Of a stretch of 64,000 bases of DNA, positions 4,476 to 58,165 are shown one piece after another (positions within the stretch are counted from its first letter, which is position 1; every line of letters starts with the position of its first letter). Made by a program: the position numbers and the translations under genes. The DNA is from Escherichia phage SUT_E1620, in the sequence record OQ939939; one strand, written 5' to 3'. The notes under the pieces were generated by a model, which saw only the letters and a program-made list of their open reading frames with translations, searched no databases and was not told the DNA's origin.

Positions 4476-4505
4476 AACCCAGATCTTAGCTGATCTGGGT
4501 TTTTT
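4476..4505 (+). terminator. rho-independent terminator
   Basis: AACCCAGATC-loop-GATCTGGGTT hairpin followed by TTTTTT. Confidence 0.6.
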
Positions 4506-23691: not shown

Positions 23692-23854
23692 CAATTAAAA
23701 ATAAAATAGTCACACTGTGTAATGATAACATGGTGTGACTATTAGCTTGCTAAGTAAGGGGGCGGTAATGAGACTCATTCTCATCTAGGGAACCTCTGGG
23801 CACACCTTCATGTGTAATCTTATGAGATTTCGAGAATTGGTAATTAGCGCTAAC

Positions 23855-24100
23855 TTAGGAGGAACACCGGTCTACTGGCTTGTCTCCTGATTCTGACATA
23901 CGAAATCTCCTCCGCGATGCCCGAGATCCATCCGACCACTCTCGCTCAAACTCCTCCCGTTTCTCCGCAAACTTCCGCTCCCTTTCCGAAAGCTCCCGCG
24001 ATACTCCCGCAATATATTCACGATGCTTATTAATCGCCCCGAGTGTTCCGAAGATTCCCACAAGCACCCCGATAATAAAGATAGCTACAAAGCTAAACAT
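23855..24100 (-). CDS. small membrane protein with charged C-terminal tail
   Basis: 81 aa; N-terminal TM; TAATG-coupled to the upstream small ORF. Confidence 0.4.
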   Translation of the reverse strand: MFSFVAIFIIGVLVGIFGTLGAINKHREYIAGVSRELSERERKFAEKREEFEREWSDGSRASRRRFRMSESGDKPVDRCSS

Positions 24101-24204
24101 TACTTGTCTCCCCGCAGCTTACGTTCAATACGAGCTAAGTGGTTATCTAAGATGCACTGCCCGATAATTACCACAACTAGTAAAGCAATAATTACTACTT
24201 CCAT
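24100..24204 (-). CDS. small membrane peptide (about 34 aa)
   Basis: hand-translated MEVVIIALLVVVIIGQCILDNHLARIERKLRGDK; TAATG overlaps at both ends. Confidence 0.3.
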   Translation of the reverse strand: MEVVIIALLVVVIIGQCILDNHLARIERKLRGDK

Positions 24205-24338
24205 TATAACCACCCCGCCATAGCCGCTAACCAAAAGAGTACAAAGATAAAGAATAACACAGTCCCGAATCCGAAACTATTTATCCAACTTTCGTACACT
24301 TCCCCGCGTCTGTTCTTTCTTCTGTTGTCGTCTGACAT
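24204..24338 (-). CDS. small tail-anchored membrane protein
   Basis: ATG at 24338 with CAGGAG SD (the track ORF extends to a GTG at 24389); C-terminal TM helix. Confidence 0.3.
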   Translation of the reverse strand: MSDDNRRKNRRGEVYESWINSFGFGTVLFFIFVLFWLAAMAGWL

Positions 24339-24591
24339 CTCTTTGCTTCTCCTGTAGTCCTGGTATTTGGAATATCCTAGCAATTGCACGAACCATTACG
24401 ACTGTCCCGATAAGATCCATTACTTCATCGAAGCCGGACTCTTCTAGCAAAAAGGATGTTCCCATCACATCTTCCATTGTATCTTCTATGACGTCTTGAA
24501 TGATTTCGTTAATTGCATCATGTATTGCTTTAGTCCTGGGATCTATTTCAAAGTTAACAGGTTCCTGAAAGGACTTTTCTTCATCTTGCAT
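24277..24591 (-). CDS. hypothetical acidic protein
   Basis: 104 aa; weak SD; overlaps the downstream small ORF. Confidence 0.3.
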   Translation of the reverse strand: MQDEEKSFQEPVNFEIDPRTKAIHDAINEIIQDVIEDTMEDVMGTSFLLEESGFDEVMDLIGTVVMVRAIARIFQIPGLQEKQRDVRRQQKKEQTRGSVRKLDK

Positions 24592-30857: not shown

Positions 30858-31490
30858 ATGACAAATGCTGCTATTGACTATAACAAGTTAAAATCAGCAC
30901 CGGTTCATTTAGACGCTTACATTAAGTCTATTGATAGCGAGTCCAAAGAGGGTGTTGTAAAAATCCGTGGATTCGCTAATACAATTAGTAAAGATCGCGC
31001 TGGCGACGTAATTCCTGCTTCGGCATGGAAAACGTCTAATGCACTTGCTAACTACATGAAAAACCCGATTATTCTTTTCGGCCACGACCATCGTCGTCCA
31101 ATCGGCAAGTGTATTGATCTTAACCCTACTGAAATGGGTCTCGAAATTGAATGCGAGATTTATGAAAGTTCTGATCCAGCTATCTTCTCACTAATTAAAA
31201 ACGGTGTACTGAAAACATTCAGTATCGGATTCCGCTGCCTAGATGCAGAATGGGATGAAGCTACTGACATATTTATTATTAAAGATTTAGAACTATACGA
31301 AGTTTCGGTAGTTTCTGTACCTTGTAATCAGGACTCAACGTTCAACCTCGCTAAGAGTATGAATGGCCACGATTACACTGAATGGCGCAAATCTTTTACT
31401 GCAACAAGTTCTAAGGCTGTCCCAGCTCAAGAACGTAATCTTTCTGAACTAGAAAAACTTGCGATAGCTTTAGGCTACGTTAAAGAATAA
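30858..31490 (+). CDS. prohead protease
   Basis: 210 aa; immediately upstream of the major capsid gene. Confidence 0.55.
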   Translation: MTNAAIDYNKLKSAPVHLDAYIKSIDSESKEGVVKIRGFANTISKDRAGDVIPASAWKTSNALANYMKNPIILFGHDHRRPIGKCIDLNPTEMGLEIECEIYESSDPAIFSLIKNGVLKTFSIGFRCLDAEWDEATDIFIIKDLELYEVSVVSVPCNQDSTFNLAKSMNGHDYTEWRKSFTATSSKAVPAQERNLSELEKLAIALGYVKE

Positions 31491-31507
31491 CGGAGAATTA
31501 TTTAAAA

Positions 31508-32884
31508 ATGACTATTGATATTAATAAGCTGAAGGAAGAACTTGGTCTGGGTGATCTGGCTAAATCTCTGGAAGGTCTGACTGCTGCTCAGAAAGCTGCG
31601 GAAGCTAAGCGTCTGCGTGAAGAGCAGGAAGAAAAAGAACTGGCTCGTATGAACGATCTAGTATCTAAAGCTGTTGGTGAAGACCGTAAGCGTCTGGAAG
31701 AAGCTCTGGATCTGGTTAAGAACCTGGATGAGAAGTCTAAGAAGAGCGCAGAACTGTTTGCACAGACTGTAGAAAAGCAACAGGAAACCATCGTTGGTCT
31801 TCAGGACGAAATTAAGTCTCTGTTGGCAGCTCGTGAAGGTCGTTCCTTCGTTGGTGATAGCGTAGCTAAAGCTCTTTATGGCACTCAGGATGCTTTCGAA
31901 GATGAAGTTGAGAAACTGGTTCTTCTGTCTTATATGATGGAGAAGGACGTATTCGAAACTGAACATGGTAAGGCTCACGTTAAAGCTGTTAACGGTTCTT
32001 CTTCCGTTTCCATGTCTAGCGAAGCATACGAAACTATCTTCTCTACCCGTATTATCCGTGACCTGCAGAAGGAACTGGTAGTTGGTGCACTGTTCGATGA
32101 ACTGCCAATGTCCAGCAAAATCCTTACTATGCTCGTTGAACCAGAAGCTGGTCGTGCTACTTGGGTAGATGCTTCCAAATTCGGTACTGACGAAACTGTT
32201 GGTGACGAAGTTAAAGGTCAACTGACTGAAATCAGCTTCAAAACTTACAAGCTGGCTGCTAAGTCCTTCATCACTGATGAAACTGAAGAAGATGCAATCT
32301 TCTCCCTGCTGCCTCTGCTGCGTAAGCGTCTGATCGAAGCACACGCTGTTTCTATCGAAGAAGCTTTCATGTCCGGTAATGGTACTGGTCAGCCTAAGGG
32401 TCTGCTGAAACTGGCTGCTGATGATGGTGCTAAGGTTGTTACCGAAGCTAAAGCTGACGGTTCTGTTCTGGTAACTGCTAAAACTATCTCCAAGCTGCGT
32501 CGTAAACTGGGCCGTCACGGTCTGAAACTGAGCAAACTGGTACTGATCGTATCTATGGATGCTTACTACGATCTGCTGGAAGATGAAGAATGGCAGGATG
32601 TTGCCCAGGTTGGTAACGATGCTGTTAAACTGCAGGGTCAGGTTGGTCGTATTTACGGTCTGCCGGTTGTAGTTTCTGAGTACTTCCCAGCTAAAGCTGC
32701 TTCCGCTGAATTCGCAGTTATTGTTTATAAAGATAACTTCGTAATGCCGCGTCAGCGTGCCGTTACTGTTGAACGTGAGCGCCAAGCTGGCAAACAGCGT
32801 GACGCATACTACGTTACTCAGCGTGTTAACCTGCAACGTTACTTCGAAAACGGCGTTGTATCTGGTGCTTACGCTGCATCTTAA
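31508..32884 (+). CDS. major capsid protein
   Basis: 458 aa; codon usage typical of a highly expressed gene; strong terminator downstream. Confidence 0.8.
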   Translation: MTIDINKLKEELGLGDLAKSLEGLTAAQKAAEAKRLREEQEEKELARMNDLVSKAVGEDRKRLEEALDLVKNLDEKSKKSAELFAQTVEKQQETIVGLQDEIKSLLAAREGRSFVGDSVAKALYGTQDAFEDEVEKLVLLSYMMEKDVFETEHGKAHVKAVNGSSSVSMSSEAYETIFSTRIIRDLQKELVVGALFDELPMSSKILTMLVEPEAGRATWVDASKFGTDETVGDEVKGQLTEISFKTYKLAAKSFITDETEEDAIFSLLPLLRKRLIEAHAVSIEEAFMSGNGTGQPKGLLKLAADDGAKVVTEAKADGSVLVTAKTISKLRRKLGRHGLKLSKLVLIVSMDAYYDLLEDEEWQDVAQVGNDAVKLQGQVGRIYGLPVVVSEYFPAKAASAEFAVIVYKDNFVMPRQRAVTVERERQAGKQRDAYYVTQRVNLQRYFENGVVSGAYAAS

Positions 32885-32903
32885 TACAGGCTTTTCAGCC
32901 GAT

Positions 32904-32929
32904 AAGGAGAGCTTCGGCTCTCCTTTTTT
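32904..32929 (+). terminator. rho-independent terminator
   Basis: GGAGAGC-TTCG-GCTCTCC hairpin plus TTTTTT. Confidence 0.6.
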
Positions 32930-32943
32930 ATTGGGAAAAATAA

Positions 32944-33456
32944 ATGCAAATCATCACTGTTGAAGATTATAAACTATATGGGAACTTAAAACGTCCTGAT
33001 ATGGAAACTCAGGTTGAGATGATGATTAAAGCTGCCAATACGCTGATTACAAGCCTTCTAGGTATGGATGATGCAGACGCGGTAGATCAATTAATCACCA
33101 CAAAACCTAGCCGTAGGAAATATTTTCTGAGTTCCCCCTCAGCCACATCTATTACAAAGATGACTATTAACGAGAAAGAAATAGACCCGGAACAGTTTAA
33201 ACTGTATCCTGATGGTGTTATTCTTCTTAAGTTTAATCCTCCTGAAGGGTATATGGATGTAGAGTATACTCAAGGTGGTTTCAATCCAACGCCTGAAGAT
33301 CTTAAACTGGCAGCATGTCTGTTAGTAGACCACTGGCATAAGCAAGATTATCGTCAAGCCAAGACTATTGGTGGTGAGACAGTTACGTTTAACAATACTA
33401 AGTCTGGTATTCCAGAGCATATTCGTACAATCATCGAAGTCTACAGGAGAGTATAA
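32944..33456 (+). CDS. head completion / connector protein (by position)
   Basis: 170 aa. Confidence 0.4.
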   Translation: MQIITVEDYKLYGNLKRPDMETQVEMMIKAANTLITSLLGMDDADAVDQLITTKPSRRKYFLSSPSATSITKMTINEKEIDPEQFKLYPDGVILLKFNPPEGYMDVEYTQGGFNPTPEDLKLAACLLVDHWHKQDYRQAKTIGGETVTFNNTKSGIPEHIRTIIEVYRRV

Positions 33457-34223
33457 TGGCTCTTTCTGATCTAGCTAGACAAATTATTAAAGAGCAGCTA
33501 GATACTGCAGGACGATCTGAGAATAATAAGAATACTGTTGTGTATACAGTTGAGACAGGTTTGAAAGATCCTACAAGAGATGGTACAGTTGCACAGGTAT
33601 CTTTCAAATTCTCAAAACCAGTATCTCAAGACTTATTAAATGTTAGGACAGCATCTATACTGAAGGCTGTTTCTTCTAATTTAGATCTTTCTGGTGATTT
33701 AGGCGCTCTAGAGAATTTAATTCAAGCAACAGCAGGTAAACGTTCTGCTGTTGGTAAAAAACGTTCTACCGGTAGAGTTCAGGTAAACTTTGGAGATCCT
33801 AGAGATACTGAAGATGGCTATTCTGGTGCAGTAACAGGTGCTTCCGGTCGTTTCGTATCGAATAGTAACATGCGTGCTATTCTTGAGATAGTAGCTAAGG
33901 AATACTTAATCAAGGATATGAAAAAAGCAGGGGCACCATTGAAGTTCAGAACTGGTCGCTTTGCTAACTCCTTAAAGATTAAAGACGTTATGCTACGTGA
34001 TGCAGAAACTAGTAAAGGTGCTCCAGAGCTGAATGTGACGTATAACTATATGGTTCGTCCTTACTCTGTGTTCAACCCCGCAGTTTCTACATATCGAAGA
34101 CTTTCTCTACGACCTTACCCTGGCGCTCGAAACCCTCAAAAACTTATTGGGGAAGCAATCGCAAAAGCTGCAAGAGACCTGATTCACTCTAGATATAAAA
34201 TCAAGGTTAATCAAGGAACCTAG
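33456..34223 (+). CDS. structural protein, head-tail joining region
   Basis: 255 aa; TAATG coupling. Confidence 0.4.
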   Translation: MALSDLARQIIKEQLDTAGRSENNKNTVVYTVETGLKDPTRDGTVAQVSFKFSKPVSQDLLNVRTASILKAVSSNLDLSGDLGALENLIQATAGKRSAVGKKRSTGRVQVNFGDPRDTEDGYSGAVTGASGRFVSNSNMRAILEIVAKEYLIKDMKKAGAPLKFRTGRFANSLKIKDVMLRDAETSKGAPELNVTYNYMVRPYSVFNPAVSTYRRLSLRPYPGARNPQKLIGEAIAKAARDLIHSRYKIKVNQGT

Positions 34224-34226
34224 TAA

Positions 34227-34712
34227 ATGGATCACAGAACAAGTATTGCACAAGCAGTGGTTGACCGAATCGCCACACAAATGGATGGTTCACAACCTGA
34301 CGAGTATTTCAATAACCTTTATGGAAACGTTTCTCGTCAAACTTATAAATTCGAGGAAATCCGAGAATTTCCTTATGTGGCAGTCCATATCGGAACTGAA
34401 ACTGGGCAGTATCTTCCCTCAGGCCAACAGTGGATGTTTTTAGAACTTCCAATCTTCGTGTATGACAAAGAGAAAACAGATATTCAAGAGCAACTTGAAA
34501 AACTCGTAGCTGACATAAAAACCGTCATTGACACAGGTGGAAATTTAGAATATACTGTTAGTAAACCTAATGGATCGACCTTCCCATGTGAGGCAACTGA
34601 TATGAGCATCACCTCAGTAGCTACAGATGAGGGTCTACTGGCCCCATATGGTTTAGCGGAAATAAATGTAACAGTGAGGTATCAGCCACCTCGTAGGGCA
34701 CTTCGCAGATAA
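34227..34712 (+). CDS. tail completion protein (by position)
   Basis: 161 aa. Confidence 0.4.
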   Translation: MDHRTSIAQAVVDRIATQMDGSQPDEYFNNLYGNVSRQTYKFEEIREFPYVAVHIGTETGQYLPSGQQWMFLELPIFVYDKEKTDIQEQLEKLVADIKTVIDTGGNLEYTVSKPNGSTFPCEATDMSITSVATDEGLLAPYGLAEINVTVRYQPPRRALRR

Positions 34713-34738
34713 GTTACAGATTAGGAGAATATAAATAA

Positions 34739-36148
34739 ATGTCTTTACAACTATTACGTAATACTCGAATCTTCGTGTCTACGGTTAAGACTGGTCACGA
34801 TAAGACCAACACGCAAGAGATTCTAGTTCAAGATGATATTTCTTGGGGTCAGGACAGTAACTCAACCGATATTACTGTTAACGAAGCTGGTCCGCGTCCA
34901 ACTCGTGGTTCAAAACGTTTCAACGACTCCCTGAACGCAGCTGAGTGGAGTTTCTCTACTTACATCCTGCCTTACTTAGATAAGACTACTAGTAAGCAGA
35001 TCGTTCCGGACTACATGCTGTGGCATGCTCTTTCTAGTGGTAAGCCTATCAACCTAGATGGTGATACAGGTGCTCACACTAACGAAACTAACTTCATGGT
35101 TAACTTTAAGGATAACGCATACCACGAGCTGGCAATGCTACATATTTACATCCTTACTGATAAAGCATGGAGCTACATCGATTCCTGTCAGATCAACCAG
35201 GCTGAAGTAAACGTTGATATCGAAGATATCGGTCGTGTAACTTGGTCAGGTAATGGTAACCAGCTGATCCCTCTGGACGCTGCTCCCTTTGATCCTGATA
35301 CTGTGGGTATTGATGATGAAACTTACATGACTATCCAGGGTTCTTACATCAAGAACAAACTGACTATCCTCAAAATTAAGGATATGGATACTGGTAAGGC
35401 ATATGACATTCCGATCACTGGTGGTAGCTTTACAATTAACAACAACATCACATATCTGACTCCTAACGTCATGTCCCGTGTTAACATCCCAATCGGTTCA
35501 TTTACTGGTGCATTCGAATTAACTGGTTCTCTGACCGCTTATCTTAACGATAAAGCTCTAGGTTCTATGGATCTGTATAAAGATCTGATTAAGACCCTGA
35601 AGGTAGTTAACCGTTTCGAAATCGCTCTAGTACTTGGCGGTGAATATGATGATGAGCGCCCAGCCGCTGTTCTAGTTGCTAAGCAAGCTCACGTTAACAT
35701 CCCAACTATTGAGACTGACGATGTACTTGGTACTTCTGTAGAGTTCAAAGCAATTCCTACTGATCTGGATACTGGTGATGAAGGTTATCTTGGTTTCTCT
35801 AATAAGTACACCAAAGCTACTATTGCAAATCTGATTGCAACTGGTGACGGTGGTAAAGCAGCTCCAGTAAAAGTAACAGGTATTACTGTTAAATCTGCGG
35901 GTGATGCAACTTCCGTCGAGAATAGTGCAACTCTTCAGATGACTGTAGATGTTTTACCTGCTGAAGCTACTAATAAGGAAGTAACTTGGTCTATTTCCTC
36001 TGGTACTGCTGCCACTATTGATGCAACTTCTGGGTTACTAACCGCTGATGCTTCTAAGACTGGTGCAGTTACTGTGAAAGCTGTAGCTAAAGATGGTTCT
36101 GGTGTAGAAGGTACTAAGAGCATTACAGTTACTGCTTCTGGTGGCTAA
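34739..36148 (+). CDS. major tail tube protein with C-terminal Ig-like domain
   Basis: 469 aa; C-terminal BIG_2-like segment; position upstream of the tape measure gene. Confidence 0.65.
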   Translation: MSLQLLRNTRIFVSTVKTGHDKTNTQEILVQDDISWGQDSNSTDITVNEAGPRPTRGSKRFNDSLNAAEWSFSTYILPYLDKTTSKQIVPDYMLWHALSSGKPINLDGDTGAHTNETNFMVNFKDNAYHELAMLHIYILTDKAWSYIDSCQINQAEVNVDIEDIGRVTWSGNGNQLIPLDAAPFDPDTVGIDDETYMTIQGSYIKNKLTILKIKDMDTGKAYDIPITGGSFTINNNITYLTPNVMSRVNIPIGSFTGAFELTGSLTAYLNDKALGSMDLYKDLIKTLKVVNRFEIALVLGGEYDDERPAAVLVAKQAHVNIPTIETDDVLGTSVEFKAIPTDLDTGDEGYLGFSNKYTKATIANLIATGDGGKAAPVKVTGITVKSAGDATSVENSATLQMTVDVLPAEATNKEVTWSISSGTAATIDATSGLLTADASKTGAVTVKAVAKDGSGVEGTKSITVTASGG

Positions 36149-36152
36149 TTAA

Positions 36153-37052
36153 ATGTACTACTCTCTAATGAGGGAGTCAAAAGTTATAGTTGAGTACGAT
36201 GGCAGGGCTTATCATTTTGATGCCCTGTCAAATTACGATATCAATACGTCCTATGAGGAATTTAAAACTCTTCGTAGGACTATACATCGTAGAACCAACT
36301 ATGCTGACTCTATTATTAATGCACAAACTCCATCTTCAATATCACTGGCTATAAATTTTAGTAATACCCTTACTGAAGCTAACTTCTTTGAATGGATGGG
36401 CTTTGACCGAGAGGGTAACACATTCTTACTACCACTTTATAGTACAAATATTGAGCCAACAATGTTTAATATATACATAGTTAATAAAGATAATAACTGT
36501 GTATACTTTGAGAATTGCTATGTATCTACTGTAGACTTTTCTCTAGATAAAAGCGTTCCTATCCTAAACGTAGGAATTGAATCTGGTAAGTTCTCTGAGG
36601 TGTCTACTTTTACTCCTGCTGGTTCTATTGTTCAGGGTGAAGTTATGTCATATAGTCCTCCTAGAGTATCTACCAACAGTAATGTTTTACCAGCTCTTTT
36701 ATCCGCTTCTATGTCATTCCAGCAACAATGTTCTTGGAGAGAAGATAAAAGCGTATTTGACATAAACAAAATATATAATAATAAGAGAGCTTATGTTAAT
36801 GAAATGAATGCTTCGGCAACAATTGCATTTTACTACACCAAGCGATTTGCTGGTGATATATTTTATAATATTGAACCCGAAACTGACATACCATTAACCA
36901 TCAGAAATGAACATATTTCGATTGATTTTCCTTCAGCACGTATAACAAAACGCCTACAATTCTCGGATATATACAGAGTTGAATGGGATGTAATCCCTAC
37001 TGCAGACTCTGATCCGGTAAGAATCGACTTCTTTGGAGAAATAAAGAAATGA
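36153..37052 (+). CDS. tail protein
   Basis: 299 aa. Confidence 0.4.
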   Translation: MYYSLMRESKVIVEYDGRAYHFDALSNYDINTSYEEFKTLRRTIHRRTNYADSIINAQTPSSISLAINFSNTLTEANFFEWMGFDREGNTFLLPLYSTNIEPTMFNIYIVNKDNNCVYFENCYVSTVDFSLDKSVPILNVGIESGKFSEVSTFTPAGSIVQGEVMSYSPPRVSTNSNVLPALLSASMSFQQQCSWREDKSVFDINKIYNNKRAYVNEMNASATIAFYYTKRFAGDIFYNIEPETDIPLTIRNEHISIDFPSARITKRLQFSDIYRVEWDVIPTADSDPVRIDFFGEIKK

Positions 37053-37453
37053 TCAATTTAAAAGATATTACCCTTGAAACTCGTACTATTGAGCTGGCTT
37101 ACCCAGGTATGCCTAACTTCAAGCTACAACTGAACTACATGTCTCGTGCTGCATCTAAGCGTGTTATCTCTTCCGCTAAGCGTGACGAGTGGGTTAACGG
37201 TACTATGATTCAGGTTCAGGATGATGATAAGTTTATTGAAGCTTTCGTTGATACTGCAATTGCTGGCTGGACTGGCTTGACGATTGGAGATGTTGAGAAG
37301 CTGATGCTTATCGAAACTGAGGCTGATCCTACTACTGAAGTTCCATTTAGTCGCGATAACGCTATCATGCTTATGCAGAACTCTGCTGCGTTTGATTCTT
37401 GGATCAACCAGACAGTGTTCCACTTAGACACTTTTCGTAGCTCAAAAGCGTAA
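37049..37453 (+). CDS. putative tail assembly chaperone
   Basis: 134 aa; acidic; upstream of the tape measure gene. Confidence 0.35.
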   Translation: MINLKDITLETRTIELAYPGMPNFKLQLNYMSRAASKRVISSAKRDEWVNGTMIQVQDDDKFIEAFVDTAIAGWTGLTIGDVEKLMLIETEADPTTEVPFSRDNAIMLMQNSAAFDSWINQTVFHLDTFRSSKA

Positions 37454-37514
37454 GCAGTTACTAGATGCTGTTGCCGATTTTGCAGATAAATGCATTAAAT
37501 CCTCAGCATCTAAA

Positions 37515-37883
37515 ATGACAAAACAACAATATTTAATGCTTTGTGAGTCTCTAGGTATTGAACCTGATCCTAAGGCAATGCCTGTTGAACTCGAAGATTT
37601 TCCACCTATTGTATCTACTAGTATGAATATTTATAACAGTCTTATTGACTGTTTCATACCAGGTGACTTTCCTATCTTTATAGGAAAAGACAAAAGTGCA
37701 TTAGGTGTTTTATTTGATATCTATGGGATTACTGATCCTATAGAGAAAGAGTTTGTTCTACACATCATCAATATATTTGATTCGAAAGCTGTAGATGCAG
37801 CTCGTAAGAGAGCCGAGAAGCATAGTAAACCTAATGGTCGTACCCCGAACATTAAGCCACATGCTAGATCTCGAGCTCAGTAA
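37515..37883 (+). CDS. putative tail assembly protein
   Basis: 122 aa; basic C-terminus. Confidence 0.35.
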   Translation: MTKQQYLMLCESLGIEPDPKAMPVELEDFPPIVSTSMNIYNSLIDCFIPGDFPIFIGKDKSALGVLFDIYGITDPIEKEFVLHIINIFDSKAVDAARKRAEKHSKPNGRTPNIKPHARSRAQ

Positions 37884-37919
37884 AAAGTTTCCTCCAATGG
37901 GCGTTCCACGATGAGGCTT

Positions 37920-37950
37920 GGCTCTGGGTGATTTGCCCAGAGCCTTTTTT
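37920..37950 (+). terminator. rho-independent terminator
   Basis: GGCTCTGGG-loop-CCCAGAGCC hairpin plus TTTTTT. Confidence 0.6.
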
Positions 37951-37964
37951 ATTGGGAAAAATAA

Positions 37965-40900
37965 ATGACTGATAAGCTAATACGAGAACTACTTATAGAT
38001 GTAAAGCAGAAAGGGGCAACCCGTACTGCAAAATCTATTGAGAACGTTTCCGATGCGTTAGAAAATGCTGCTGCCGCTTCCGAACTGACTAATGAGCAGT
38101 TAGGAAAAATGCCCAAAACTCTTTACTCCATTGAGAGGGCGGCGGATAGAGCAGCTAAAAGTCTAACTAAAATGCAGGCTAGTAGAGGTATGGCTGGTAT
38201 CACTAAATCCATTGAAGGTATTGGTGATAAGCTAGATGATCTTGCCCTTGCTATGATCGAAGTATCTGAGAAGCTAGAGTCTGGATTTACACATGTGGGT
38301 AAATCTGTTAAGGCTATGGGTAACGATGTAGCTGCTGCAACCGAAAAAGTTCAAGATAGATTATATGATACTAACCGAGCACTAGGCAATACTGCTAGAG
38401 GCTTTAACGATACAACTACCTCCGCAGGACGTGCTAGTCGTGCAATTGGTAATACTTCTGGTTCAGCACGTGGTGCTACTCGTGACTTCGCAGCAATGGC
38501 TAAAGTGGGTGGTAGTTTACCTCTTATGTATGCTGCTATCGCGTCTAACGTGTTCGTTCTACAATCTGCATTCGAACAACTTAAGATGGGTGACCAGTTA
38601 AACCGTCTTGAGAAGTTTGGTACTATTGTTGGTACTCAAACAGGTACTCCTGTACAAACTCTAGCTAGATCTCTACAAGAGGCTGCTGGTTATGCAATCT
38701 CCTTCGAAGAAGCAATGAGACAGGCATCCTCTGCTTCTGCATATGGATTCGATGCTAAACAACTTAATAAATTTGGTCTAGTAGCTCGTCGTGCTGCTGC
38801 TGTTCTTGGTGTTGATATGACTGATGCACTTAACCGTGTAATCAAGGGCGTATCTAAACAAGAAATCGAACTTCTGGACGAACTTGGTGTTACTATTCGT
38901 CTTAACGATGCTTACGCAGACTATGTTAAACAGTTAAATGCTGCTAACACAGGTATTACATATAACGTTAATAGTCTCTCTACTTTCCAGAAGCAACAAG
39001 CATATGCTAACGCAGTTATCGCTGAATCTACTAAACGTTTCGGCTATCTTGATGATGTACTTCGTGCAACCCCCTGGGAACAGTTTGCTGCTAATGCTGA
39101 TGCTGCACTGAGAAAGGTTCAACAGGCTGCTGCTAAGTATTTAGGGCCAGTAATTGATTCTATCAACGCAGTGTTCTATACTTCTCAAGCATCTATCTCG
39201 GCCTCTGCTGCTAGAGCACAGGAAGAAACTAACCGCCAGATTGACCCAGCTAACGTTGGTGCTGTAGCTTTAAGTCTTTCCGCTTCTGAGGAAGGATATA
39301 ATAAAGCTCTTGATATGTACAAAGAATCTCTAGAAAAGCGTAATAAGTTAAAAGCTGATCTAGATAAGCGTATGGAACAGGCTGACTTCTTTACTGCAGG
39401 TGCAATTCGTTCTGTGGCTCAAGGTGTTCCGGTAAGTGCTGCGGCTCTTGGTGCTTCGGAGGAAAACAAGAAGTTCGTAGCTGAAACTGCTGCATTAGCT
39501 CTCCAGGTAGAGCGTCTTGATAAGGAAGTAGAGGATTCAACCGATAACTTAGGTGCATGGAAATCTGCATATCAAGCTGCTGGTGCTGCCGCAGCCAAAT
39601 CTAATACAGCATTCCAGAAGCAAATTAACCTACAGAAAGATGCAAATGACCCGGATGCGGTTTATGACTTTAACTCTGCAACTCTGAAAGGATTGACAGA
39701 ACAGCAGAAAGCGTATGACCAAGCTAAGAAAACTGCCAGTGACTTAGCTAACGATATCCAGAACATCGCTCAGAATACTAATACTGCGGCTAAAACTAGT
39801 GCATCCCTATCAGATACGATTAAGACTATTGAGTCTCTTTCTGCGGGTACTGGTAAAAATGCTGATGAGTATGTTAAGAGCCTGAACTTAGGGTATAATA
39901 CTCTTAGTGAGATGAAGACTGCTTCACAAGCTCTTGCTGGTTACGTAAAATTAACTGGTAATGAGACTAAGAATCAGTTAGAAGTTCAGCAGAAGATTGC
40001 AGAAGTATACAACCAGACTAAGGACAAAGAGAAAGCACAGGAAGCTGGTAGACGTCTGGAAATCCAACAGTTAGAAGAACAGGAAGCAGCTCTTAAGCGT
40101 GTCCTAGAAACTAACAAAGGTAACAAAGCAATCGAAGGTGAAATAGCTAAGATTCAGTTAGAACGTATCAAGATTACTAACCAGGGTATGGAAGCTCAGA
40201 AGAAGGTTAAGGACTATACCGATAAGATTCTTGGTGTTGATCGTGAAATTGCTCTCCTGAATAACCGTACTATGACAGATACTCAATATCGTTTAGCTCA
40301 GTTGAACCTTGAACTGACTGTCGAGAAAGAAAAGTATGAATGGTACTCCAAACAGGTTGATAAGCATAAGGAAGCTGAACAATCAAGACGTGCTCAGGCA
40401 CAAATTGAACGTGAAATCTGGAAATTCCGTCAGGATCAGCAAAGGGAAATGGCTGCTGGCAGGGAGGAGGAGCAACAAAGGAAGTTTACCGCAAATCCTT
40501 TAATGGGAGCTGCGGAACGTATCAAGGAGCAAATCCAGCTATTTGAAGACCTTAAGCAAAAAACTTTAGGGAATGCTGCTGCTCAGCTAGAGTATAACAA
40601 AAAACTGGCCGAAACTAGAGCCCAGCTCGCGGCTTTAAGAGTACAGCGCGATGCAGAAATGCAGTCTTCTGTAGGTGCGGCTGTAGGGGCTACGTATACT
40701 CCTACTACTGGATTAACTGGAGAAGATAAAAACTTCGCAGATATGCAGAATAGAATGGCATCCTACGACCAGGCTATTTCTAAGCTGTCTGAGCTGAACT
40801 CCGAAGCAACTGCTGTAGCACAAAGCATGGGTAACCTAACTAACGCTATGATCCAGTTCTCTCAAGGATCTCTGGATACCACTTCTCTAGTAGCGGCGGG

Positions 40901-41645
40901 TATGCAAACTGTATCTTCAATGATTCAGTATAGTGTTGGTCAACAGGTAAGTGCTATTGATGCAGCTATTGCAGCAGAACAGAAACGTGACGGTAAATCT
41001 GAGCAATCCAAAGCTAAGATCAAGAAGTTAGAGGCTGAAAAGCTCAAGATCCAGCAAGATGCAGCTAAGAAGCAAATCATTATCCAGACGGCAGTAGCGG
41101 TGATGCAAGCAGCAACAGCTGTTCCGTACCCATTCTCTATTCCTCTGATGGTTGCGGCTGGTTTAGCAGGTGCTATGGCTCTTGCTCAAGCATCCTCTGC
41201 ATCTGGTATGTCTTCTATTGGGGACTCTGGTGCTGAGACAGCTGGTTACTTAACTCTTGGAGAGCGCCAGAAGAACGTAGACGTTTCTATGTCGGCTAAC
41301 GCAGGTGAGCTTTCTTATATTCGAGGAGATCAAGGGATTGGTAATGCTAACTCTTTCGTACCCCGTGCAGAAGGTGGTAATATGTATCCTGGAGTTAGTT
41401 ACCAGATGGGTGAACATGGTACCGAAGTAATCACTCCTATGGTTCCGATGAAGGCTACTCCTACTGATGAACTCAAAGGATCTTCAAAGGGTACATCGGG
41501 TAGACCTATTGTGCTGAACATCAGTACGATGGATGCGGCTAGCTTCCGAGACTTTGCTTCGAGCAACAGTGCTGCTTTCAGGGATGCCGTAGAACAGGCT
41601 CTTAATGAGAATGGAACCACCCTGAAATCACTTGGTAATTCTTAA
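37965..41645 (+). CDS. tape measure protein
   Basis: 1226 aa; long alpha-helical Ala/Gln-rich coiled coil; hydrophobic segment near the C-terminus. Confidence 0.85.
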   Translation: MTDKLIRELLIDVKQKGATRTAKSIENVSDALENAAAASELTNEQLGKMPKTLYSIERAADRAAKSLTKMQASRGMAGITKSIEGIGDKLDDLALAMIEVSEKLESGFTHVGKSVKAMGNDVAAATEKVQDRLYDTNRALGNTARGFNDTTTSAGRASRAIGNTSGSARGATRDFAAMAKVGGSLPLMYAAIASNVFVLQSAFEQLKMGDQLNRLEKFGTIVGTQTGTPVQTLARSLQEAAGYAISFEEAMRQASSASAYGFDAKQLNKFGLVARRAAAVLGVDMTDALNRVIKGVSKQEIELLDELGVTIRLNDAYADYVKQLNAANTGITYNVNSLSTFQKQQAYANAVIAESTKRFGYLDDVLRATPWEQFAANADAALRKVQQAAAKYLGPVIDSINAVFYTSQASISASAARAQEETNRQIDPANVGAVALSLSASEEGYNKALDMYKESLEKRNKLKADLDKRMEQADFFTAGAIRSVAQGVPVSAAALGASEENKKFVAETAALALQVERLDKEVEDSTDNLGAWKSAYQAAGAAAAKSNTAFQKQINLQKDANDPDAVYDFNSATLKGLTEQQKAYDQAKKTASDLANDIQNIAQNTNTAAKTSASLSDTIKTIESLSAGTGKNADEYVKSLNLGYNTLSEMKTASQALAGYVKLTGNETKNQLEVQQKIAEVYNQTKDKEKAQEAGRRLEIQQLEEQEAALKRVLETNKGNKAIEGEIAKIQLERIKITNQGMEAQKKVKDYTDKILGVDREIALLNNRTMTDTQYRLAQLNLELTVEKEKYEWYSKQVDKHKEAEQSRRAQAQIEREIWKFRQDQQREMAAGREEEQQRKFTANPLMGAAERIKEQIQLFEDLKQKTLGNAAAQLEYNKKLAETRAQLAALRVQRDAEMQSSVGAAVGATYTPTTGLTGEDKNFADMQNRMASYDQAISKLSELNSEATAVAQSMGNLTNAMIQFSQGSLDTTSLVAAGMQTVSSMIQYSVGQQVSAIDAAIAAEQKRDGKSEQSKAKIKKLEAEKLKIQQDAAKKQIIIQTAVAVMQAATAVPYPFSIPLMVAAGLAGAMALAQASSASGMSSIGDSGAETAGYLTLGERQKNVDVSMSANAGELSYIRGDQGIGNANSFVPRAEGGNMYPGVSYQMGEHGTEVITPMVPMKATPTDELKGSSKGTSGRPIVLNISTMDAASFRDFASSNSAAFRDAVEQALNENGTTLKSLGNS

Positions 41646-41650
41646 TACTG

Positions 41651-41678
41651 GAGGAGGACTTTATGTCCTCCTTTTCTT
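41651..41678 (+). terminator. rho-independent terminator
   Basis: GAGGAGGAC-TTTAT-GTCCTCC hairpin plus T-rich tail. Confidence 0.5.
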
Positions 41679-41698
41679 TATGGAAAAATAAAAATTTC

Positions 41699-41727
41699 TT
41701 GATAAAATTTTCCAATCCTATTATAAT
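41699..41727 (+). promoter_or_regulatory. sigma70-type promoter
   Basis: TTGATA-17-TATAAT upstream of the gene at 41754. Confidence 0.45.
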
Positions 41728-41753
41728 ATTGTTATTAAGAGGAGAAATTAACT

Positions 41754-42368
41754 ATGAGACTACCAGACCCATACACGAACCCAGAGCTATCAGGGTTAGG
41801 TTTTGAAAGCGTTAACTTAGTAGACAATGACCCTATGATTCGTGATGAATTACCTAATGGTAAAGTTAGGGAGGTTAAGGTGTCTGCTCAATATTGGGGT
41901 ATTAATATCTCTTATCCAGAATTATTCCCAGATGAATTTGCTAAATTAGACTCATTCATTCTAGATTATAAAAGAACAGGTAGCTATATTGATGTGTTAT
42001 TACCACAATATGAAGCTTTCCGAGTTCGTGGTGATACTAGTGCTGTAAATATTCCTGCTGGACAAAAAGGTTCAACAGTTATTATGGACACTAAAGGTAC
42101 ACTTCGTGGACTGCCTAAACCAGGCGATTTATTTAAATTGTCCAACCATCCAAAAGTGTACAAAATCACTTCTATCAACACAGCAGGAAATACTTGGAAT
42201 ATAAGTGTTTATCCTGATCTATTCATTACTACTACGGGTAGTGAGAAACCGGTATTTAATGGTATTCTGTTTAGAACTAAATTAATGAACGGAGACAGTT
42301 TTGGCTCTACGTTAAATAGTAATGGTACATATACTGGTATTTCACTTTCCTTGAGGGAAAGTCTATGA
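41754..42368 (+). CDS. distal tail protein (pb9-like)
   Basis: 204 aa; follows the tape measure gene. Confidence 0.45.
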   Translation: MRLPDPYTNPELSGLGFESVNLVDNDPMIRDELPNGKVREVKVSAQYWGINISYPELFPDEFAKLDSFILDYKRTGSYIDVLLPQYEAFRVRGDTSAVNIPAGQKGSTVIMDTKGTLRGLPKPGDLFKLSNHPKVYKITSINTAGNTWNISVYPDLFITTTGSEKPVFNGILFRTKLMNGDSFGSTLNSNGTYTGISLSLRESL

Positions 42369-45214
42369 AGAAAATTCTTGACAGTGCAAGAGAGTATCTA
42401 AGAACCAATAATAAAATAAAAACTGCATGCCTTATTACTCTTGAATTGCCAAGCTCTACTGGATCAAGTTCTGCGTACATTTATCTTACAGACTATTTTA
42501 GGGATGTAATTTATAATGGTATTCTTTACACATCCGGTAAAGTTAAGTCTATAACAACACATAAACAAAATAGAAAACTTTCCATCGGTAGCCTTTCTTT
42601 TACTATAACAGGTACTGCTGAGGATGAAGTATTAAAACTAGTCCAAAATGGTGTATCCTTCCTAGATAGATCCATCTCAATCCATCAAGCGGTTATTGAT
42701 GAAGAAGGTAACATTCTTCCTGTAGATCCAGACACTAATGGTCCTTTACTTTACTTCCGTGGTAAAATCACTGGTGGTGGTATTAAGGACAACATTGGTA
42801 CTTCTGGAGTTAGTACATCTATTATTACATGGAACTGTTCAAACCAATTCTATGACTTTGATAGAGTAAACGGACGTTTCACAGATGATGCTGACCATAG
42901 GGGGCTTGAGATTGTTGCTGGCCAATTAGTTCCCTCTAATGGTGCTAAGCGACCTGAATATCAAGAAGACTACGGGTTCTTCCACGCTAACAAGAGTATC
43001 TCTATTCTTGCTAAGTATCAGGTTCAGGAAGAACGTTATAAGTTACAATCTAAGAAAAAATTATTTGGTCTTTCTAGAAGCTATAGTCTAAAGAAATATT
43101 ATGAGACTGTAACTAAGGAAGTAGATCTTGATTTTAACTTAGCTGCTAAATTCCTGCCAGTAGTATATGGAGTTCAGAAAATTCCTGGAATCCCAGTATT
43201 TGCAGATACTGAACTGCATAATCCTAATATTGTATATGTAGTATACGCTTTCTGTGAGGGTGAGATTGATGGATTTCTAGATTTCTACTTTGGTGATGTA
43301 CCAATGATCTGTATTGATCCTAATGATAGTAAGTCTCGTACTTGCTTTGGTACTAAGAAAGTAGCTGGTGATACCATGCAACGTATTGCTTCTGGTCAAC
43401 CAAGCTCTGAACCTTCTGTTCATGGACAGGAATATAAGTATAATGATGGTAATGGCGATATCCGTATCTGGACTTATCATGGTAAGGCTGATCAATCTGC
43501 CGCTGATGTTCTAGTTAACATTGCAAAAGAGAAAGGTTTCTATCTACAGAACATGAATGAGAATGGACCGGAATACTGGGACTCTCGTTATAAACTGTTA
43601 GATACTGCTTATGCTATTGTTCGCTTTACTATTAATGAAAACAGAACAGAAATTCCAGAAGTTAGCGCTGAAGTTCAAGGTAAGAAGATTAAGATCTATC
43701 ATTCAGATGGTAGAGTAACTGCTGATAAGACTAGCTTAAATGGTATATGGCAAACTCTGGACTACCTAACCTCTGATCGCTACGGTGCTAATATCACTAT
43801 CGATCAGTTCCCACTCCAGCAACTTATTCAAGAAGCAGCTATTTTGGATATCATTGATGAATCCTATCAGGTTTCTTGGCAACCCTATTGGAGATACGTT
43901 GGATGGACTGATGCTGTAGGAGAGAATAGACAAATAGTTCAAATGAACACTATTCTCGATACCTCTGAGTCAGTATTTAAAAACGTGCAGGGATTAATAG
44001 AGTCTTATGGTGGTGCTATCAACAACTTATCTGGTCAATATAGAATAACTGTTGAGAAGTTCTCAAACACCCCATTAGAGATTGACTTCTTAGATACCTA
44101 TGGTGATCTGGAATTGTCAGATACTACTGGTAGAAATAAATTCAACTCAGTACAAGCCTCTATACTAGATCCTGCATTAAGCTGGAAAACTAACTCCATT
44201 ACATTCTTTAACTCTATATTTAAGGAACAAGATAAAGGGTTAGATAAAAAACTTCAACTTTCTTTTGCAAATATCACTAACTACTATACTGCGCGTAGCT
44301 TTGCAGATAGAGAACTGAAAAAGTCTCGTTACTCACGAACTCTTACGTTCTCGTTACCATATCATTTCATAGGTATTGAGCCTAACGATCCGATTGCTTT
44401 TACATATGGTCGTTATGGTTGGGATAAGAAATACTTCCTAGTTGATGAAGTTGAAAACTCTAGAGAAGGTAAGATTAATATTACACTGCAAGAGTATGGT
44501 GAGGATGTATTCATTAACTCCGAGCAGGTTGATAATAGTGGTAACGATATCCCTGATGTTAGTAATAACGTACTGCCTCCTAGAGACTTTATGTACACAC
44601 CAACACCGGGTGGACAAGTAGGATCTATTGGTAAGAATGGTGAGTTATCTTGGCTTCCTAGCTTAACTAATAACGTTGTTTATTACTCCATCGTTCATTC
44701 AGGGCATGCTGATCCTTATATCATACAGCAACTAGAAACTAATCCAAATCTACGAATGATCCAAGAAATTATTGGAGAACCTGCTGGTTTAGCAGTCTTT
44801 GAGATTAGAGCTGTAGATATTAATGGTAGACGAAGTTCTCCTGTAACATTATCGGTAGAACTTAACTCTGCTAAAAACTTAAGCGTCGTTAGTAATTTCA
44901 GGGTTACTAACACAGCTTCAGGAGATGCATCGGAGTTTGTAGGACCAGACGTTAAGTTGGCCTGGGATAGAATTCCAGAAGAAGATATCATTGATGGAAT
45001 CTTCTACACTCTCGAAATCTACGATAACCTAGATCGTTTATTAAGAAGTGTACGAATTGAAGATCAGTATGTCTACGATTATCTACTGATATACAATAAG
45101 GCAGACTATGCTCTTCATAACGAGGATGCTCTAGGTATTAATAGGAAGTTACGCTTCCGTATAAGAGCAGAAGGTGATAATGGCGAGCAATCTGTGGATT
45201 GGGCATCTATTTAA
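42365..45214 (+). CDS. baseplate hub / tail tip protein (pb3-like)
   Basis: 949 aa, the size I recall for T5 pb3; position. Confidence 0.55.
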   Translation: MKKILDSAREYLRTNNKIKTACLITLELPSSTGSSSAYIYLTDYFRDVIYNGILYTSGKVKSITTHKQNRKLSIGSLSFTITGTAEDEVLKLVQNGVSFLDRSISIHQAVIDEEGNILPVDPDTNGPLLYFRGKITGGGIKDNIGTSGVSTSIITWNCSNQFYDFDRVNGRFTDDADHRGLEIVAGQLVPSNGAKRPEYQEDYGFFHANKSISILAKYQVQEERYKLQSKKKLFGLSRSYSLKKYYETVTKEVDLDFNLAAKFLPVVYGVQKIPGIPVFADTELHNPNIVYVVYAFCEGEIDGFLDFYFGDVPMICIDPNDSKSRTCFGTKKVAGDTMQRIASGQPSSEPSVHGQEYKYNDGNGDIRIWTYHGKADQSAADVLVNIAKEKGFYLQNMNENGPEYWDSRYKLLDTAYAIVRFTINENRTEIPEVSAEVQGKKIKIYHSDGRVTADKTSLNGIWQTLDYLTSDRYGANITIDQFPLQQLIQEAAILDIIDESYQVSWQPYWRYVGWTDAVGENRQIVQMNTILDTSESVFKNVQGLIESYGGAINNLSGQYRITVEKFSNTPLEIDFLDTYGDLELSDTTGRNKFNSVQASILDPALSWKTNSITFFNSIFKEQDKGLDKKLQLSFANITNYYTARSFADRELKKSRYSRTLTFSLPYHFIGIEPNDPIAFTYGRYGWDKKYFLVDEVENSREGKINITLQEYGEDVFINSEQVDNSGNDIPDVSNNVLPPRDFMYTPTPGGQVGSIGKNGELSWLPSLTNNVVYYSIVHSGHADPYIIQQLETNPNLRMIQEIIGEPAGLAVFEIRAVDINGRRSSPVTLSVELNSAKNLSVVSNFRVTNTASGDASEFVGPDVKLAWDRIPEEDIIDGIFYTLEIYDNLDRLLRSVRIEDQYVYDYLLIYNKADYALHNEDALGINRKLRFRIRAEGDNGEQSVDWASI

Positions 45215-58126: not shown

Positions 58127-58165
58127 AAGTTAAAAAGAAAGGGAGCCGTAGCTCCCCTTGGTTTA

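Follow-up and report, generated by a model that had tools for sequence, protein, structure and literature searches.

Why do two late genes of one phage start with exactly the same 23 nt? In the window, by which we mean the whole 64,000-nt stretch analysed here, which comes from a T5-like phage and is 99% identical to Salmonella phage Sepoy, the sequence TTTTTTATTGGGAAAAATAAATG occurs as two exact copies, at 32924-32946 and 37945-37967, both on the plus strand. Each copy starts immediately 3' of a strong intrinsic-terminator hairpin, with the capsid gene upstream of one and the tail chaperone genes upstream of the other, and each ends in the ATG of a real gene, that of the head-tail adaptor (32944) or of the tape measure protein (37965). 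The original prediction had noticed this arrangement, which the window search, the hairpin scan and the open reading frames confirm, and had read it as a conserved late regulatory or translation-initiation signal. The features concerned are the following.

31508..32884, plus strand: high-copy major capsid protein gene (T5 pb8 homologue), ahead of T1; open reading frame, annotated in Sepoy and T5
32889..32900, plus strand: small hairpin GGCU-UUUC-AGCC in the gap from the capsid stop codon to T1; fold
32904..32925, plus strand: terminator T1, hairpin AAGGAGAGC-UUCG-GCUCUCCUU, 9 pairs with a UUCG tetraloop; scan and fold
32924..32946, plus strand: 23-mer copy 1, with U-tract TTTTTTATT (32924-32932), GGGA (32933-36), A-rich spacer (32937-43) and ATG (32944-46)
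32944..33456, plus strand: head-tail adaptor gene; open reading frame, start codon backed by N-terminal conservation across genera
34528..34556, plus strand: sigma-70 promoter TTGACA-17-TATACT (11/12) within the tail-terminator gene, placed like late promoter PJ5 of T5
37888..37919, plus strand: conserved box TTTCCTCCAATGGGCGTTCCACGATGAGGCTT in the non-coding gap from the chaperone stop codon to T2
37920..37944, plus strand: terminator T2, hairpin GGCUCUGGG-UGAUUUG-CCCAGAGCC; scan and fold, annotated in T5
37945..37967, plus strand: 23-mer copy 2, with U-tract, GGGA, A-rich spacer and tape measure ATG
37965..41645, plus strand: tape measure protein gene (T5 pb2 homologue); open reading frame, Sepoy annotation
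41650..41674, plus strand: terminator T3, hairpin 3' of the tape measure gene; scan and fold, annotated in T5
41672..41692, plus strand: degenerate third copy TTTTCTTTATGGAAAAATAAA, 17/21 positions matching, with no ATG behind it
41699..41727, plus strand: late promoter PG25, TTGATA-17-TATAAT (11/12 matches); promoter scan, P-G25 or T5P39 in T5 records

Composition and occurrence of the repeat

The 23-mer is a composite of a terminator U-tract, TTTTTTATT, a weak Shine-Dalgarno sequence, GGGA, an A-rich spacer and an ATG, and these parts do separate, ordinary jobs; apart from the U-tract, the part bearing the ribosome-binding site reads GGGAAAAATAA. The identity between the copies in fact spans 25 nt, as CC stands ahead of each. 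No third match with 3 mismatches or fewer was found in the window, nor any match in 100 shuffles, and the third-best match to the 21-mer that stops short of the ATG, over the whole window and both strands, is site 3, with 4 mismatches against 6 for the next. In the window, the motif search proposed earlier thus yields exactly two full copies and a degenerate third, and the related sequence expected after a terminator at 41651 is present as TTTATGGAAAAATAAAAA, at 41677-41694, behind the hairpin at 41650-41674. The core GGAAAAATAAA occurs exactly three times in the 64 kb, always at the late terminators T1, T2 and T3, and the U-tract TTTTTTATT is also the tail of two other terminators of the window, at 4500 and 53284.

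T1, T2 and T3 are the top three terminator-like sites in a scan of the region and are stable in folds, each with a U-run directly 3' of its stem (TTTTCTTTAT after T3). Terminators and ribosome-binding sites are already annotated in the GenBank records of T5 and Sepoy: independent annotators marked the terminators and a GGA ribosome-binding site, which in the Sepoy record lies at copy 1, and T1 is annotated as a terminator in the Sepoy, T5 and EASG3 records. A terminator of the early region (58140, minus strand) likewise adjoins the next ATG, and the terminator-ATG architecture is therefore a habit of this genome. Both start codons are well founded, since the adaptor residues L15, K16, P18 and E21 are invariant across genera, fitting ATG 32944 as the true start, and the tape measure start is the same in all records compared.

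At both sites GGGA lies 7 nt before the ATG and forms a weak duplex with the anti-Shine-Dalgarno sequence (-4.2 kcal/mol for both genes). Among 18 late starts, only the portal gene and the second chaperone open reading frame pair more weakly, and the latter is, among the late starts checked, without a Shine-Dalgarno region. The 23-mer was not found at 15 other late gene starts, which carry ordinary and differing Shine-Dalgarno regions. A promoter scan (at least 9/12 matches) returned no site between T1 and the adaptor ATG and none between T2 and the tape measure ATG. Strong late promoters lie before the tail tube gene and after T3; the former, at the PJ5 position, restores expression ahead of the tail tube gene. 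Both PG25 and PJ5 direct late expression in vivo (PMC7472727).

Conservation of the two junctions

We compared the distance from motif to ATG in 27 T5-like genomes. The 21-mer is present at both sites in 19 of the 27, and the identity runs through to the ATG at both sites in 3. The tape measure ATG lies 3 nt farther off in most Tequintavirus relatives (10 nt from GGGA, vs 7 nt in the window's clade), and so only the 21-mer is common to their two sites. Fusion to the ATG, which had been taken as part of the element, thus holds at both sites here but describes the Epseptimavirus clade and not T5-like phages in general. Note that a spacing that is 7 nt in one clade and 10 nt in another is loose for a Shine-Dalgarno sequence, which does not favour the reading preferred below. 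No T5-like genome carries more than two copies of the motif, and the pair is kept across hundreds of genomes.

In a Tequintavirus whose module as a whole is 83% identical to that of the window, the T1 and T2 regions show 100% identity, and this difference implies purifying selection. Nothing in the module is better conserved than the first terminator with its tail. Providencia phage PR1 shares 46 nt of it without a change, although the proteins on either side are 56% and 29% identical, and in Proteus phage PM135 the longest stretch that matches the window exactly (32 nt) again falls on T1 with its tail. This conservation suggests selection on more than "any hairpin plus Us"; generic terminator and ribosome-site function needs no nucleotide-perfect conservation, yet T1 and its tail have it.

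In other genera, the same junctions retain the hairpin, the T-tract, a G-rich Shine-Dalgarno sequence, the A/T spacer and the ATG. The Shine-Dalgarno sequence itself varies (GGGT, GGAG, GAGG, AGGTGA, AAGGAG, AGGAGG), and canonical versions stand in the same place in My1, PM135 and the Vibrio phages, the last with AGGAG(G). The T2 region has a 16-pair consensus structure; for 7 of these pairs (6 belong to the T2 stem), some sequence is changed on both sides and still paired. The T1 stem is invariant among phages of enteric hosts and altered but still paired in Vibrio phages. That the T1 stem is devoid of compensatory changes in enteric-host phages, whereas the T2 stem has them, sits awkwardly with a generic terminator role.

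Overall, the part of the original prediction that saw reuse beyond coincidence is borne out: no shuffle of 100 matched, the element is kept in relatives, and it is a terminator tail plus an initiation region. The prediction was to be doubted if the motif were both absent before other late genes and unconserved in relatives; it is absent from the 15 other starts, and it is conserved. A dedicated late signal is not supported by these comparisons, given the absence from those starts, the limit of two copies per T5-like genome, the 3-nt shift of the tape measure ATG between genera, the replacement of the G-rich part by canonical Shine-Dalgarno sequences, and a third copy that adjoins no start codon and lies upstream of the -35 box of PG25. 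The repeat is an ordinary, already annotated kind of signal that is unusually well conserved, and no new class of late signal.

Explanations for the shared sequence

We consider it probable that the repeat is made of two ordinary signals that abut, T1 and T2 being leaky terminators and read-through together with a weak ribosome-binding site lowering the output of low-copy proteins. The U-tract UUUUUUAUU would complete a rho-independent terminator, and the bases behind it (weak Shine-Dalgarno GGGA, A-rich spacer AAAAUAA, AUG) would form the translation-initiation region of the next gene. T1, behind the very abundant major capsid gene, and T2, behind the tail tube and chaperone genes, would act as internal, leaky terminators of the late structural operon; the adaptor and tape measure genes, with no promoter of their own, would be transcribed only by polymerases that read through. 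The weak ribosome site would make translation of the adaptor and tape measure mRNAs poor, and the two effects would jointly keep down the amounts of proteins of which a virion needs few copies. In T5, a virion contains hundreds of copies of the capsid protein, about 12 of the adaptor and about 3 of the tape measure protein. Most likely, the arrangement reflects partial termination, low translation and a stoichiometric purpose. The same sequence would stand at both junctions because the same constraints and a similar ancestral sequence were kept by purifying selection.

The conservation of T1 and its tail, well above that of the flanking genes, together with the confinement of GGAAAAATAAA to the three late terminators, could also mean that a trans-acting factor, be it a phage protein or an RNA-binding host protein such as CsrA (GGA in a loop) or Hfq (U-tail and A-rich ARN repeats), recognises the sequence of the hairpin tail and controls read-through or translation at each of the three. 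The dyad TTTATT-GGGAAA-AATAAA within the 23-mer could form a 6-bp A-U hairpin with GGGA in its loop in the minimum-energy fold, and the same tail recurs ahead of the tape measure gene of an unrelated siphovirus, which would fit a host factor. The A-U hairpin is, however, marginal and missing from the centroid structure, and pairing between a U-rich and an A-rich stretch is trivial. Tails from one genome resemble each other somewhat more than tails from different lineages do (permutation fraction 0.007-0.015), a likeness that phylogeny confounds. Against such a factor, natural variants at one site (GGG to GG, ATTATTAGG, a lost A, T13) have no counterpart at the other, plain Shine-Dalgarno sequences take the place of the G-rich core in other genera, and no factor binding the tail is known. 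An Rfam covariance-model search of 31000-43000 gave no family match, with 2 sub-threshold chance hits. We regard a trans-acting factor as unlikely. Slightly less likely still is a stricter form of this reading, with T1 and its tail as a sequence-specific attenuator that has echoes at T2 and T3 and is read by a conserved host or phage factor. Were the attenuator real, the invariant hairpin and its UUUAUU-GGGAAA-AAUAAA tail would set the flow from head to connector and tail genes and fix virion stoichiometry, and this would account for 46 identical non-coding bases between genera whose neighbouring proteins are only 29-56% identical.

The identity might instead be a historical by-product, one junction having been copied onto the other by short-patch gene conversion or recombination, possibly aided by homing endonucleases that use the intergenic gaps, or by a role of the junctions as linkers for recombination between modules, so that the shared sequence has no role past generic terminator and ribosome-site function. 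Homing endonuclease genes (phrog_681, 35% mutual identity) do lie at site 2 in T5 and beside site 1 in smaug, NR01 and SP3, those at site 1 accompanied by linked T1 substitutions and GGG to GG. Moreover, the motif is found at site 1 in the deep lineages PR1 and PM135 and is identical at site 2 only in T5-like phages, and 27 nt are identical to the tape measure gene start of an unrelated phage. However, variants at the two sites are independent, with no sign of ongoing homogenisation; site 2 is already 2-3 edits off the motif in PR1, Sugarlandvirus and L041, which makes conversion unneeded; distances between PR1 and the window are alike on either side of T1, giving no breakpoint signal; and endonuclease insertion points vary relative to the motif. 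The endonuclease gene is present beside the motif in some genomes (T5.141 at site 2, the smaug_27 type at site 1) and missing in others. T5 has an intact copy 1 although it encodes such an endonuclease itself, and the complete target must therefore comprise more than the 25-mer. A neutral by-product would not have remained unchanged against 83% background identity, and we hold this origin to be improbable.

It is less probable still that the A-rich part is an UP element and that, as at site 3, late promoters lie at sites 1 and 2; at site 3 the same A-rich run comes just before the -35 box of PG25, a genuine late promoter. In record AY587007 a "putative late promoter T5P40" does span T1, the 23-mer and the initial adaptor codons, and ATGCAA-18-TATAAA can be read downstream of copy 1 in the window. 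These hexamers match at only 3/6 and 5/6 positions and are not among the promoter-scan results; the -10-like TATAAA encodes Tyr-Lys and is TATAGA, TACAGA, TGGAGA or nothing similar in relatives bearing the 23-mer. T5P40 transcripts would miss about 15 conserved first adaptor codons, the other T5 record does not annotate it, and no hexamer pair lies downstream of copy 2. Hexamers that score at least 9/12 and are spaced by 16-18 bp past the A-rich run are found only at site 3. Chance likeness of two AT-rich intergenic stretches has next to no probability and is refuted by the shuffles (0/100 with a match at 3 mismatches or fewer) and by conservation of the pair in relatives; an 18-21-mer core does turn up here and there in viral and bacterial sequences that are unrelated, and several of these chance-level matches also lie behind hairpins because the motif opens with a T-run.

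Known systems and neighbouring elements

In T5 (NC_005859, AY587007; PMC7472727), orthologous putative rho-independent terminators follow D20-21 (capsid), T5.142 (chaperone) and D18-19 (pb2). The hairpins, their positions and the downstream PG25 are the same as here and the site 1 sequence is identical, but an HNH endonuclease gene splits the site 2 motif after TTTTTTATT, leaving T5 with one full copy. Among the literature reachable by search we found no paper remarking on the shared tail and, for T5-like phages, no measurement of transcript 3' ends or read-through.

A close parallel is phage T7, whose leaky terminator T-phi lies directly after major capsid gene 10, the downstream tail genes being expressed by read-through. 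As there, a terminator follows the most abundant structural gene close to the ribosome-binding site of a lower-copy gene, with the same logic of a step down in expression; the polymerase is not the same, being T7 RNA polymerase at T-phi and the host sigma-70 RNA polymerase in T5-like phages, and read-through at T1 and T2 is predicted. Sequence distal to an intrinsic terminator reportedly affects its efficiency, a general property and not a family of related elements, which is a possible reason for selection on bases past the U-tract, in that they would tune leakiness.

At site 3, a similar tail follows the terminator and the late promoter PG25 comes next. UP elements of sigma-70 promoters are A/T-rich and lie at -40 to -60. 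The A-rich part of the third copy, at about -40 to -52 of PG25 (the run AAAAATAAAAA at about -40 to -50), is in the usual place of such an element, unlike the A-rich runs of sites 1 and 2, which have no conserved core promoter downstream; the other genera that were compared also retain an A-rich run ahead of PG25. This part of the third copy is a candidate UP element of PG25 and plausibly acts as one. The third copy is not itself a ribosome-binding site, and the recurrence of GGAAAAATAAA there is not covered by the ribosome-site reading.

The main value of these results is that the annotation is tidied: the late operon of T5-like phages can be viewed as a series of expression steps, set by a pair of leaky terminators, a pair of internal late promoters and the weak ribosome sites that follow the terminators. 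In engineered operons or phages, such compact terminator-ribosome-site junctions could be used as natural parts to adjust expression ratios.

The non-coding DNA ahead of the terminators is also conserved. The stem of the small hairpin before T1 is kept in other genera with a different loop (variants GGCTATACTGCC, GGCTAATAGCC and GGCTTAATGCC), and the box TTTCCTCCAATGGGCGTTCCACGATGAGGCTT ahead of T2 is kept from Salmonella and Proteus phages through to Vibrio phage Cody.

A repeated junction in the late operon

Salmonella phage Sepoy (Epseptimavirus, Demerecviridae, T5 family) shares 99.1% identity with the 32000-39000 segment, which matched 549 phage records. On the + strand, terminase, portal, decoration and protease genes come first, then the major capsid protein gene; the adaptor gene is followed, in order, by tail completion, tail terminator, tail tube and minor tail genes.

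Late genes and predicted terminator hairpins around the repeat
31508-32884, + strand, major capsid protein gene
32904-32925, hairpin T1, 3' of the capsid gene, AAGGAGAGC-UUCG-GCUCUCCUU
32944-33456, + strand, head-tail adaptor gene
37049-37453 and 37515-37883, + strand, two chaperone ORFs
37920-37944, hairpin T2, 3' of the chaperone genes, GGCUCUGGG-UGAUUUG-CCCAGAGCC
37965-41645, + strand, tape measure protein gene
41650-41674, hairpin T3, 3' of the tape measure gene, GGAGGAGGAC-UUUAU-GUCCUCCUU
from 41754, + strand, distal tail protein gene

The same 23-mer had been proposed at two late-gene starts, behind two different terminator hairpins, and both points are borne out: exact copies lie at 32924-32946 (site 1, before the adaptor ATG) and 37945-37967 (site 2, before the tape measure ATG), directly 3' of T1 and T2, which together with T3 are the three best terminator-like sites found by our scan within 27-47 kb, in agreement with folding. 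Both copies are preceded by CC, which extends the identity to 25 nt. Further matches with up to 3 mismatches were found neither in the window nor in shuffled sequence. The related sequence announced after the terminator near 41651 is real: TTTTCTTTATGGAAAAATAAA at 41672 (site 3) is the third-best match on both window strands to the 21-mer, i.e. the 23-mer shortened at the start codon, with 4 mismatches versus 6 for the next best, and GGAAAAATAAA occurs exactly three times in the window, solely at these sites. Mini-ORFs inside the motif, read by eye, are not common to sites 1 and 2 and were discarded.

Each copy begins at the foot of a strong hairpin, so that the terminator U-tract is made up of its first nine bases, TTTTTTATT, which also form the tail of two other window terminators, at 4500 and 53284. 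The remainder, GGGAAAAATAA plus ATG, forms the next gene's initiation region. The 23-mer is a conserved junction of terminator tail and ribosome-binding site, the parts of which are already annotated in public records: in the Sepoy record, the T1 hairpin is labelled a terminator and, ahead of both genes, GGA a ribosome-binding site, and T5 records carry putative rho-independent terminators at all three places, with late promoter P-G25 (T5P39) after the third. An Rfam search matched no family to the region or to T1.

The early region, too, has a terminator abutting the next ATG, so the genome uses this architecture habitually. It lies at 58140 (58126-58165, minus strand) and separates the SSB-like gene (D11) from the SbcD-like gene (D12); its hairpin, GGGGAGC-UACG-GCUCCCC, is T1-like in form, and its tail reaches the D12 ATG after 13 nt, without recognisable Shine-Dalgarno (SD) sequence. 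Three of the terminators preceding gene starts have SD-like, purine-rich 5' arms, AAGGAGAG (32904-32912), GGAGGAGGAC (41650-41659) and AAGGGGAG (58153-58160, minus strand), and anti-SD-like 3' arms, CUCUCCUU, GUCCUCCUU and GCUCCCUU, respectively. The minimum-energy fold, but not the centroid, contains an A-U hairpin that displays the SD in its loop; by eye, it is seemingly kept in My1, PM135 and Tequintavirus variants and lost in Vibrio phages. We did not rely on it because U-rich and A-rich runs pair trivially.

Ribosome sites at the late starts

GGGA pairs only weakly with the 16S tail (-4.2 kcal/mol), and among 18 late starts only those of the portal gene and the second chaperone ORF are weaker. 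The motif is absent from the other late starts checked, where SDs are ordinary and varied (AAGGAGG, GGAGGAGG, AGGAGA, GGAGAA). The suggestion of a conserved late regulatory or translation-initiation signal is partly supported: the terminator-tail/ribosome-site junction is kept in relatives, but the element is neither a general late signal nor the first of a new class.

No SD precedes the second chaperone ORF (37515-37883; +1.2 kcal/mol), whose reading frame continues upstream without a stop codon to 37428, into the 3' end of the first ORF (stop codon 37451-37453). The two frames differ by +1 (or -2), whereas tail chaperone G/GT pairs usually differ by -1, and ACU UUU CGU (37430-37438) might serve as a +1 slip site.

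The stretch from the chaperone stop codon to T2 contains a box, TTTCCTCCAATGGGCGTTCCACGATGAGGCTT (37888-37919), kept in Salmonella, Klebsiella, Pectobacterium and Proteus phages and in Vibrio phage Cody, and non-coding, since indels among relatives rule out coding. Its anti-SD-like CCUCC could, by complementarity, pair with the tape measure SD. Long-range pairing of the UUUCCUCC box with this SD, as a means of translational coupling to the chaperone ORF, was rejected: tests for lineage-specific covariation were negative, native box/SD duplexes showing no advantage over those formed across lineages (permutation fraction 0.88), and RNAalifold returned only a weak 4-bp outer helix for it. In Vibrio members of the family, an extra gene of ~245-257 aa lies between the chaperone and tape measure genes (comparison loci L045 10184-10927, L046 10145-10882 and L047 15004-15777); it is phrog_15693 in D254, with no function assigned, and terminators flank it on both sides in D254 and 70E34.

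Conservation of the junctions and likeness of the two copies

We compared the three junctions in 10 annotated relatives, 34 IMG/VR genomes, three Vibrio phages, one more lineage and Providencia phage PR1, leaving out Aeromonas phage Akh-2, whose locus is fragmented by frameshifts. The succession of hairpin, T-tract, G-rich block, A-T-rich spacer and ATG is retained family-wide at the capsid/adaptor and post-chaperone junctions. The G-rich block varies with lineage, being GGGT in Klebsiella and Proteus phages, GGAG or GAGG in My1, AGGTGA at site 2 of PM135 and AAGGAG or AGGAGG in Vibrio phages, so that the GGG of the 23-mer occupies the SD position. Conservation in relatives was upheld: both sites could be read in 27 T5-like genomes, and the 21-mer TTTTTTATTGGGAAAAATAAA is at both in 19 of them, although the full 23-mer is at both in only three, the clade of SUT_E1620. 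The Tequintavirus tape measure start reads ...AAAACATG or ...AAAATATG, with the ATG 3 nt farther. Changes seen at one site, namely GG for GGG, ATTATTAGG, T13 or the loss of one A, have no counterpart at the other, and no T5-like genome has more than two core copies. T5 itself holds one, because an HNH endonuclease gene sits after TTTTTTATT at site 2.

The motif at site 1 reaches into deep lineages (identical in PR1, one base different in PM135), and site 2, identical in T5-like phages only, is 2-3 edits off in PR1 (TTTTTTATTGGAAAAATATAATG), Klebsiella phages and locus L041; the two junctions have therefore long been similar and came to coincide in one subfamily. The two tails are somewhat more alike within genomes than across lineages (permutation fraction 0.007-0.015), which phylogenetic structure alone can give. 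Purifying selection on T1 and T2 is clear: both regions show 100% identity with a Tequintavirus that reaches 83% over the module. A recombination breakpoint at T1 was dismissed, PR1 being about equally distant on either side. Genes for phrog_681 HNH endonucleases, 35% identical to each other, occur in L002 (T5; 23778-24530), L003 (smaug; 4969-5538), L033 and L038. In T5 the gene interrupts the motif at site 2; in smaug, NR01 and SP3 it lies at site 1, after the capsid gene and ahead of T1, and is linked there with T1 changes and with GGG to GG. An extended -10-like TGGTATAGT or TGGTATACT precedes each of these genes.

No exact match of the 64-kb window to the Proteus phage PM135 locus is longer than the 32-mer AAGGAGAGCTTCGGCTCTCCTTTTTTATTGGG (32904-32935), which is T1 with the start of its tail (next, 21 nt), and the best 40-nt alignment window lies there too (98% versus 53% background). 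In PR1, 46 nt are identical there, with capsid and adaptor proteins 56% and 29% identical. Compensatory changes are present in the T2 stem; the T1 stem has none among phages of enteric hosts. Judged from these alignments, T1 and its tail are conserved beyond the needs of a generic terminator. Such an excess leaves room for a sequence-specific reader, i.e. a trans-acting factor of phage or host that would recognise the hairpin tail, a reading that we consider rather unlikely. Host origin of T1 or the motif was set aside: none of 5,426 E. coli genomes has a T1-like sequence, and the 21-mer gives 14 scattered matches, in unrelated taxa, in 596 Gb of bacterial genomes. Two observations are new, though minor: one tail is reused at two junctions, and T1 is conserved to an extreme degree.

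Chance-level bacterial core matches often follow hairpins too, because the motif opens with a T-run. Two further cases come from loci L095 (3100-3150), L056 and L115. In an unrelated 42.6-kb siphovirus contig (IMG/VR 3300032255_000005), GGC-TTTTTTATTGGGAAAAATAAATGAC lies between a different, apparently bidirectional hairpin and the contig's own tape measure gene; the identity with the window spans 27 nt and takes in the whole 23-mer. A relative of that phage, with 49% identity in the tape measure protein, has TTTTTTATTGGGCAAAAAAATG behind a hairpin that differs again. Given how often chance-level matches follow hairpins, we read the siphovirus case as a plausible but unproven convergence on a terminator tail plus A-rich weak ribosome site, not as transfer.

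Promoters and a probable stepwise late operon

In our promoter scan, neither the stretch from T1 to the adaptor ATG nor that from T2 to the tape measure ATG has a site of at least 9/12, and the scan gave no hexamer pair for a promoter reading of sites 1 and 2. A "putative late promoter T5P40", predicted in silico, is annotated over site 1 in one T5 record. What would serve as its -10 hexamer encodes Tyr-Lys/Arg and is not conserved, being lost in smaug, Sealy, PM135 and PR1, all of which keep the motif, and the mRNA would miss conserved N-terminal codons, giving a truncated adaptor; we therefore rejected it. The scan found TTGACA-17-TATACT at 34528, at the position of T5 PJ5, and TTGATA-17-TATAAT at 41699, which is PG25; late transcripts start from both in vivo (PMC7472727). 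The A-rich half of the site 3 motif falls at about -40 to -52 of PG25, the position of an UP element, and an A-rich run is retained there in the other genera examined. The literature searched yielded no transcript-end mapping for T5-like phages.

Most likely, the late operon is split into expression steps. Transcription of the capsid gene would mostly halt at T1, and read-through would carry a weak ribosome site for the adaptor; PJ5 would renew transcription for the tail tube gene; T2 would cut it again before the tape measure gene, likewise provided with a weak ribosome site; T3 would close the tape measure unit, and PG25 would restart transcription for the tail-tip genes. The termination efficiency and translation rates in this scheme are those that we infer. 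In the T5 virion, adaptor and tape measure proteins are low-copy relative to capsid and tube proteins, with which the stepwise model agrees. Downstream from PG25, the leader TTAAGAGGAGAAATTAACTATGAGA (41730-41759) appears to resemble "RBSII" and the Met-Arg start of the pDS/pQE expression vectors.
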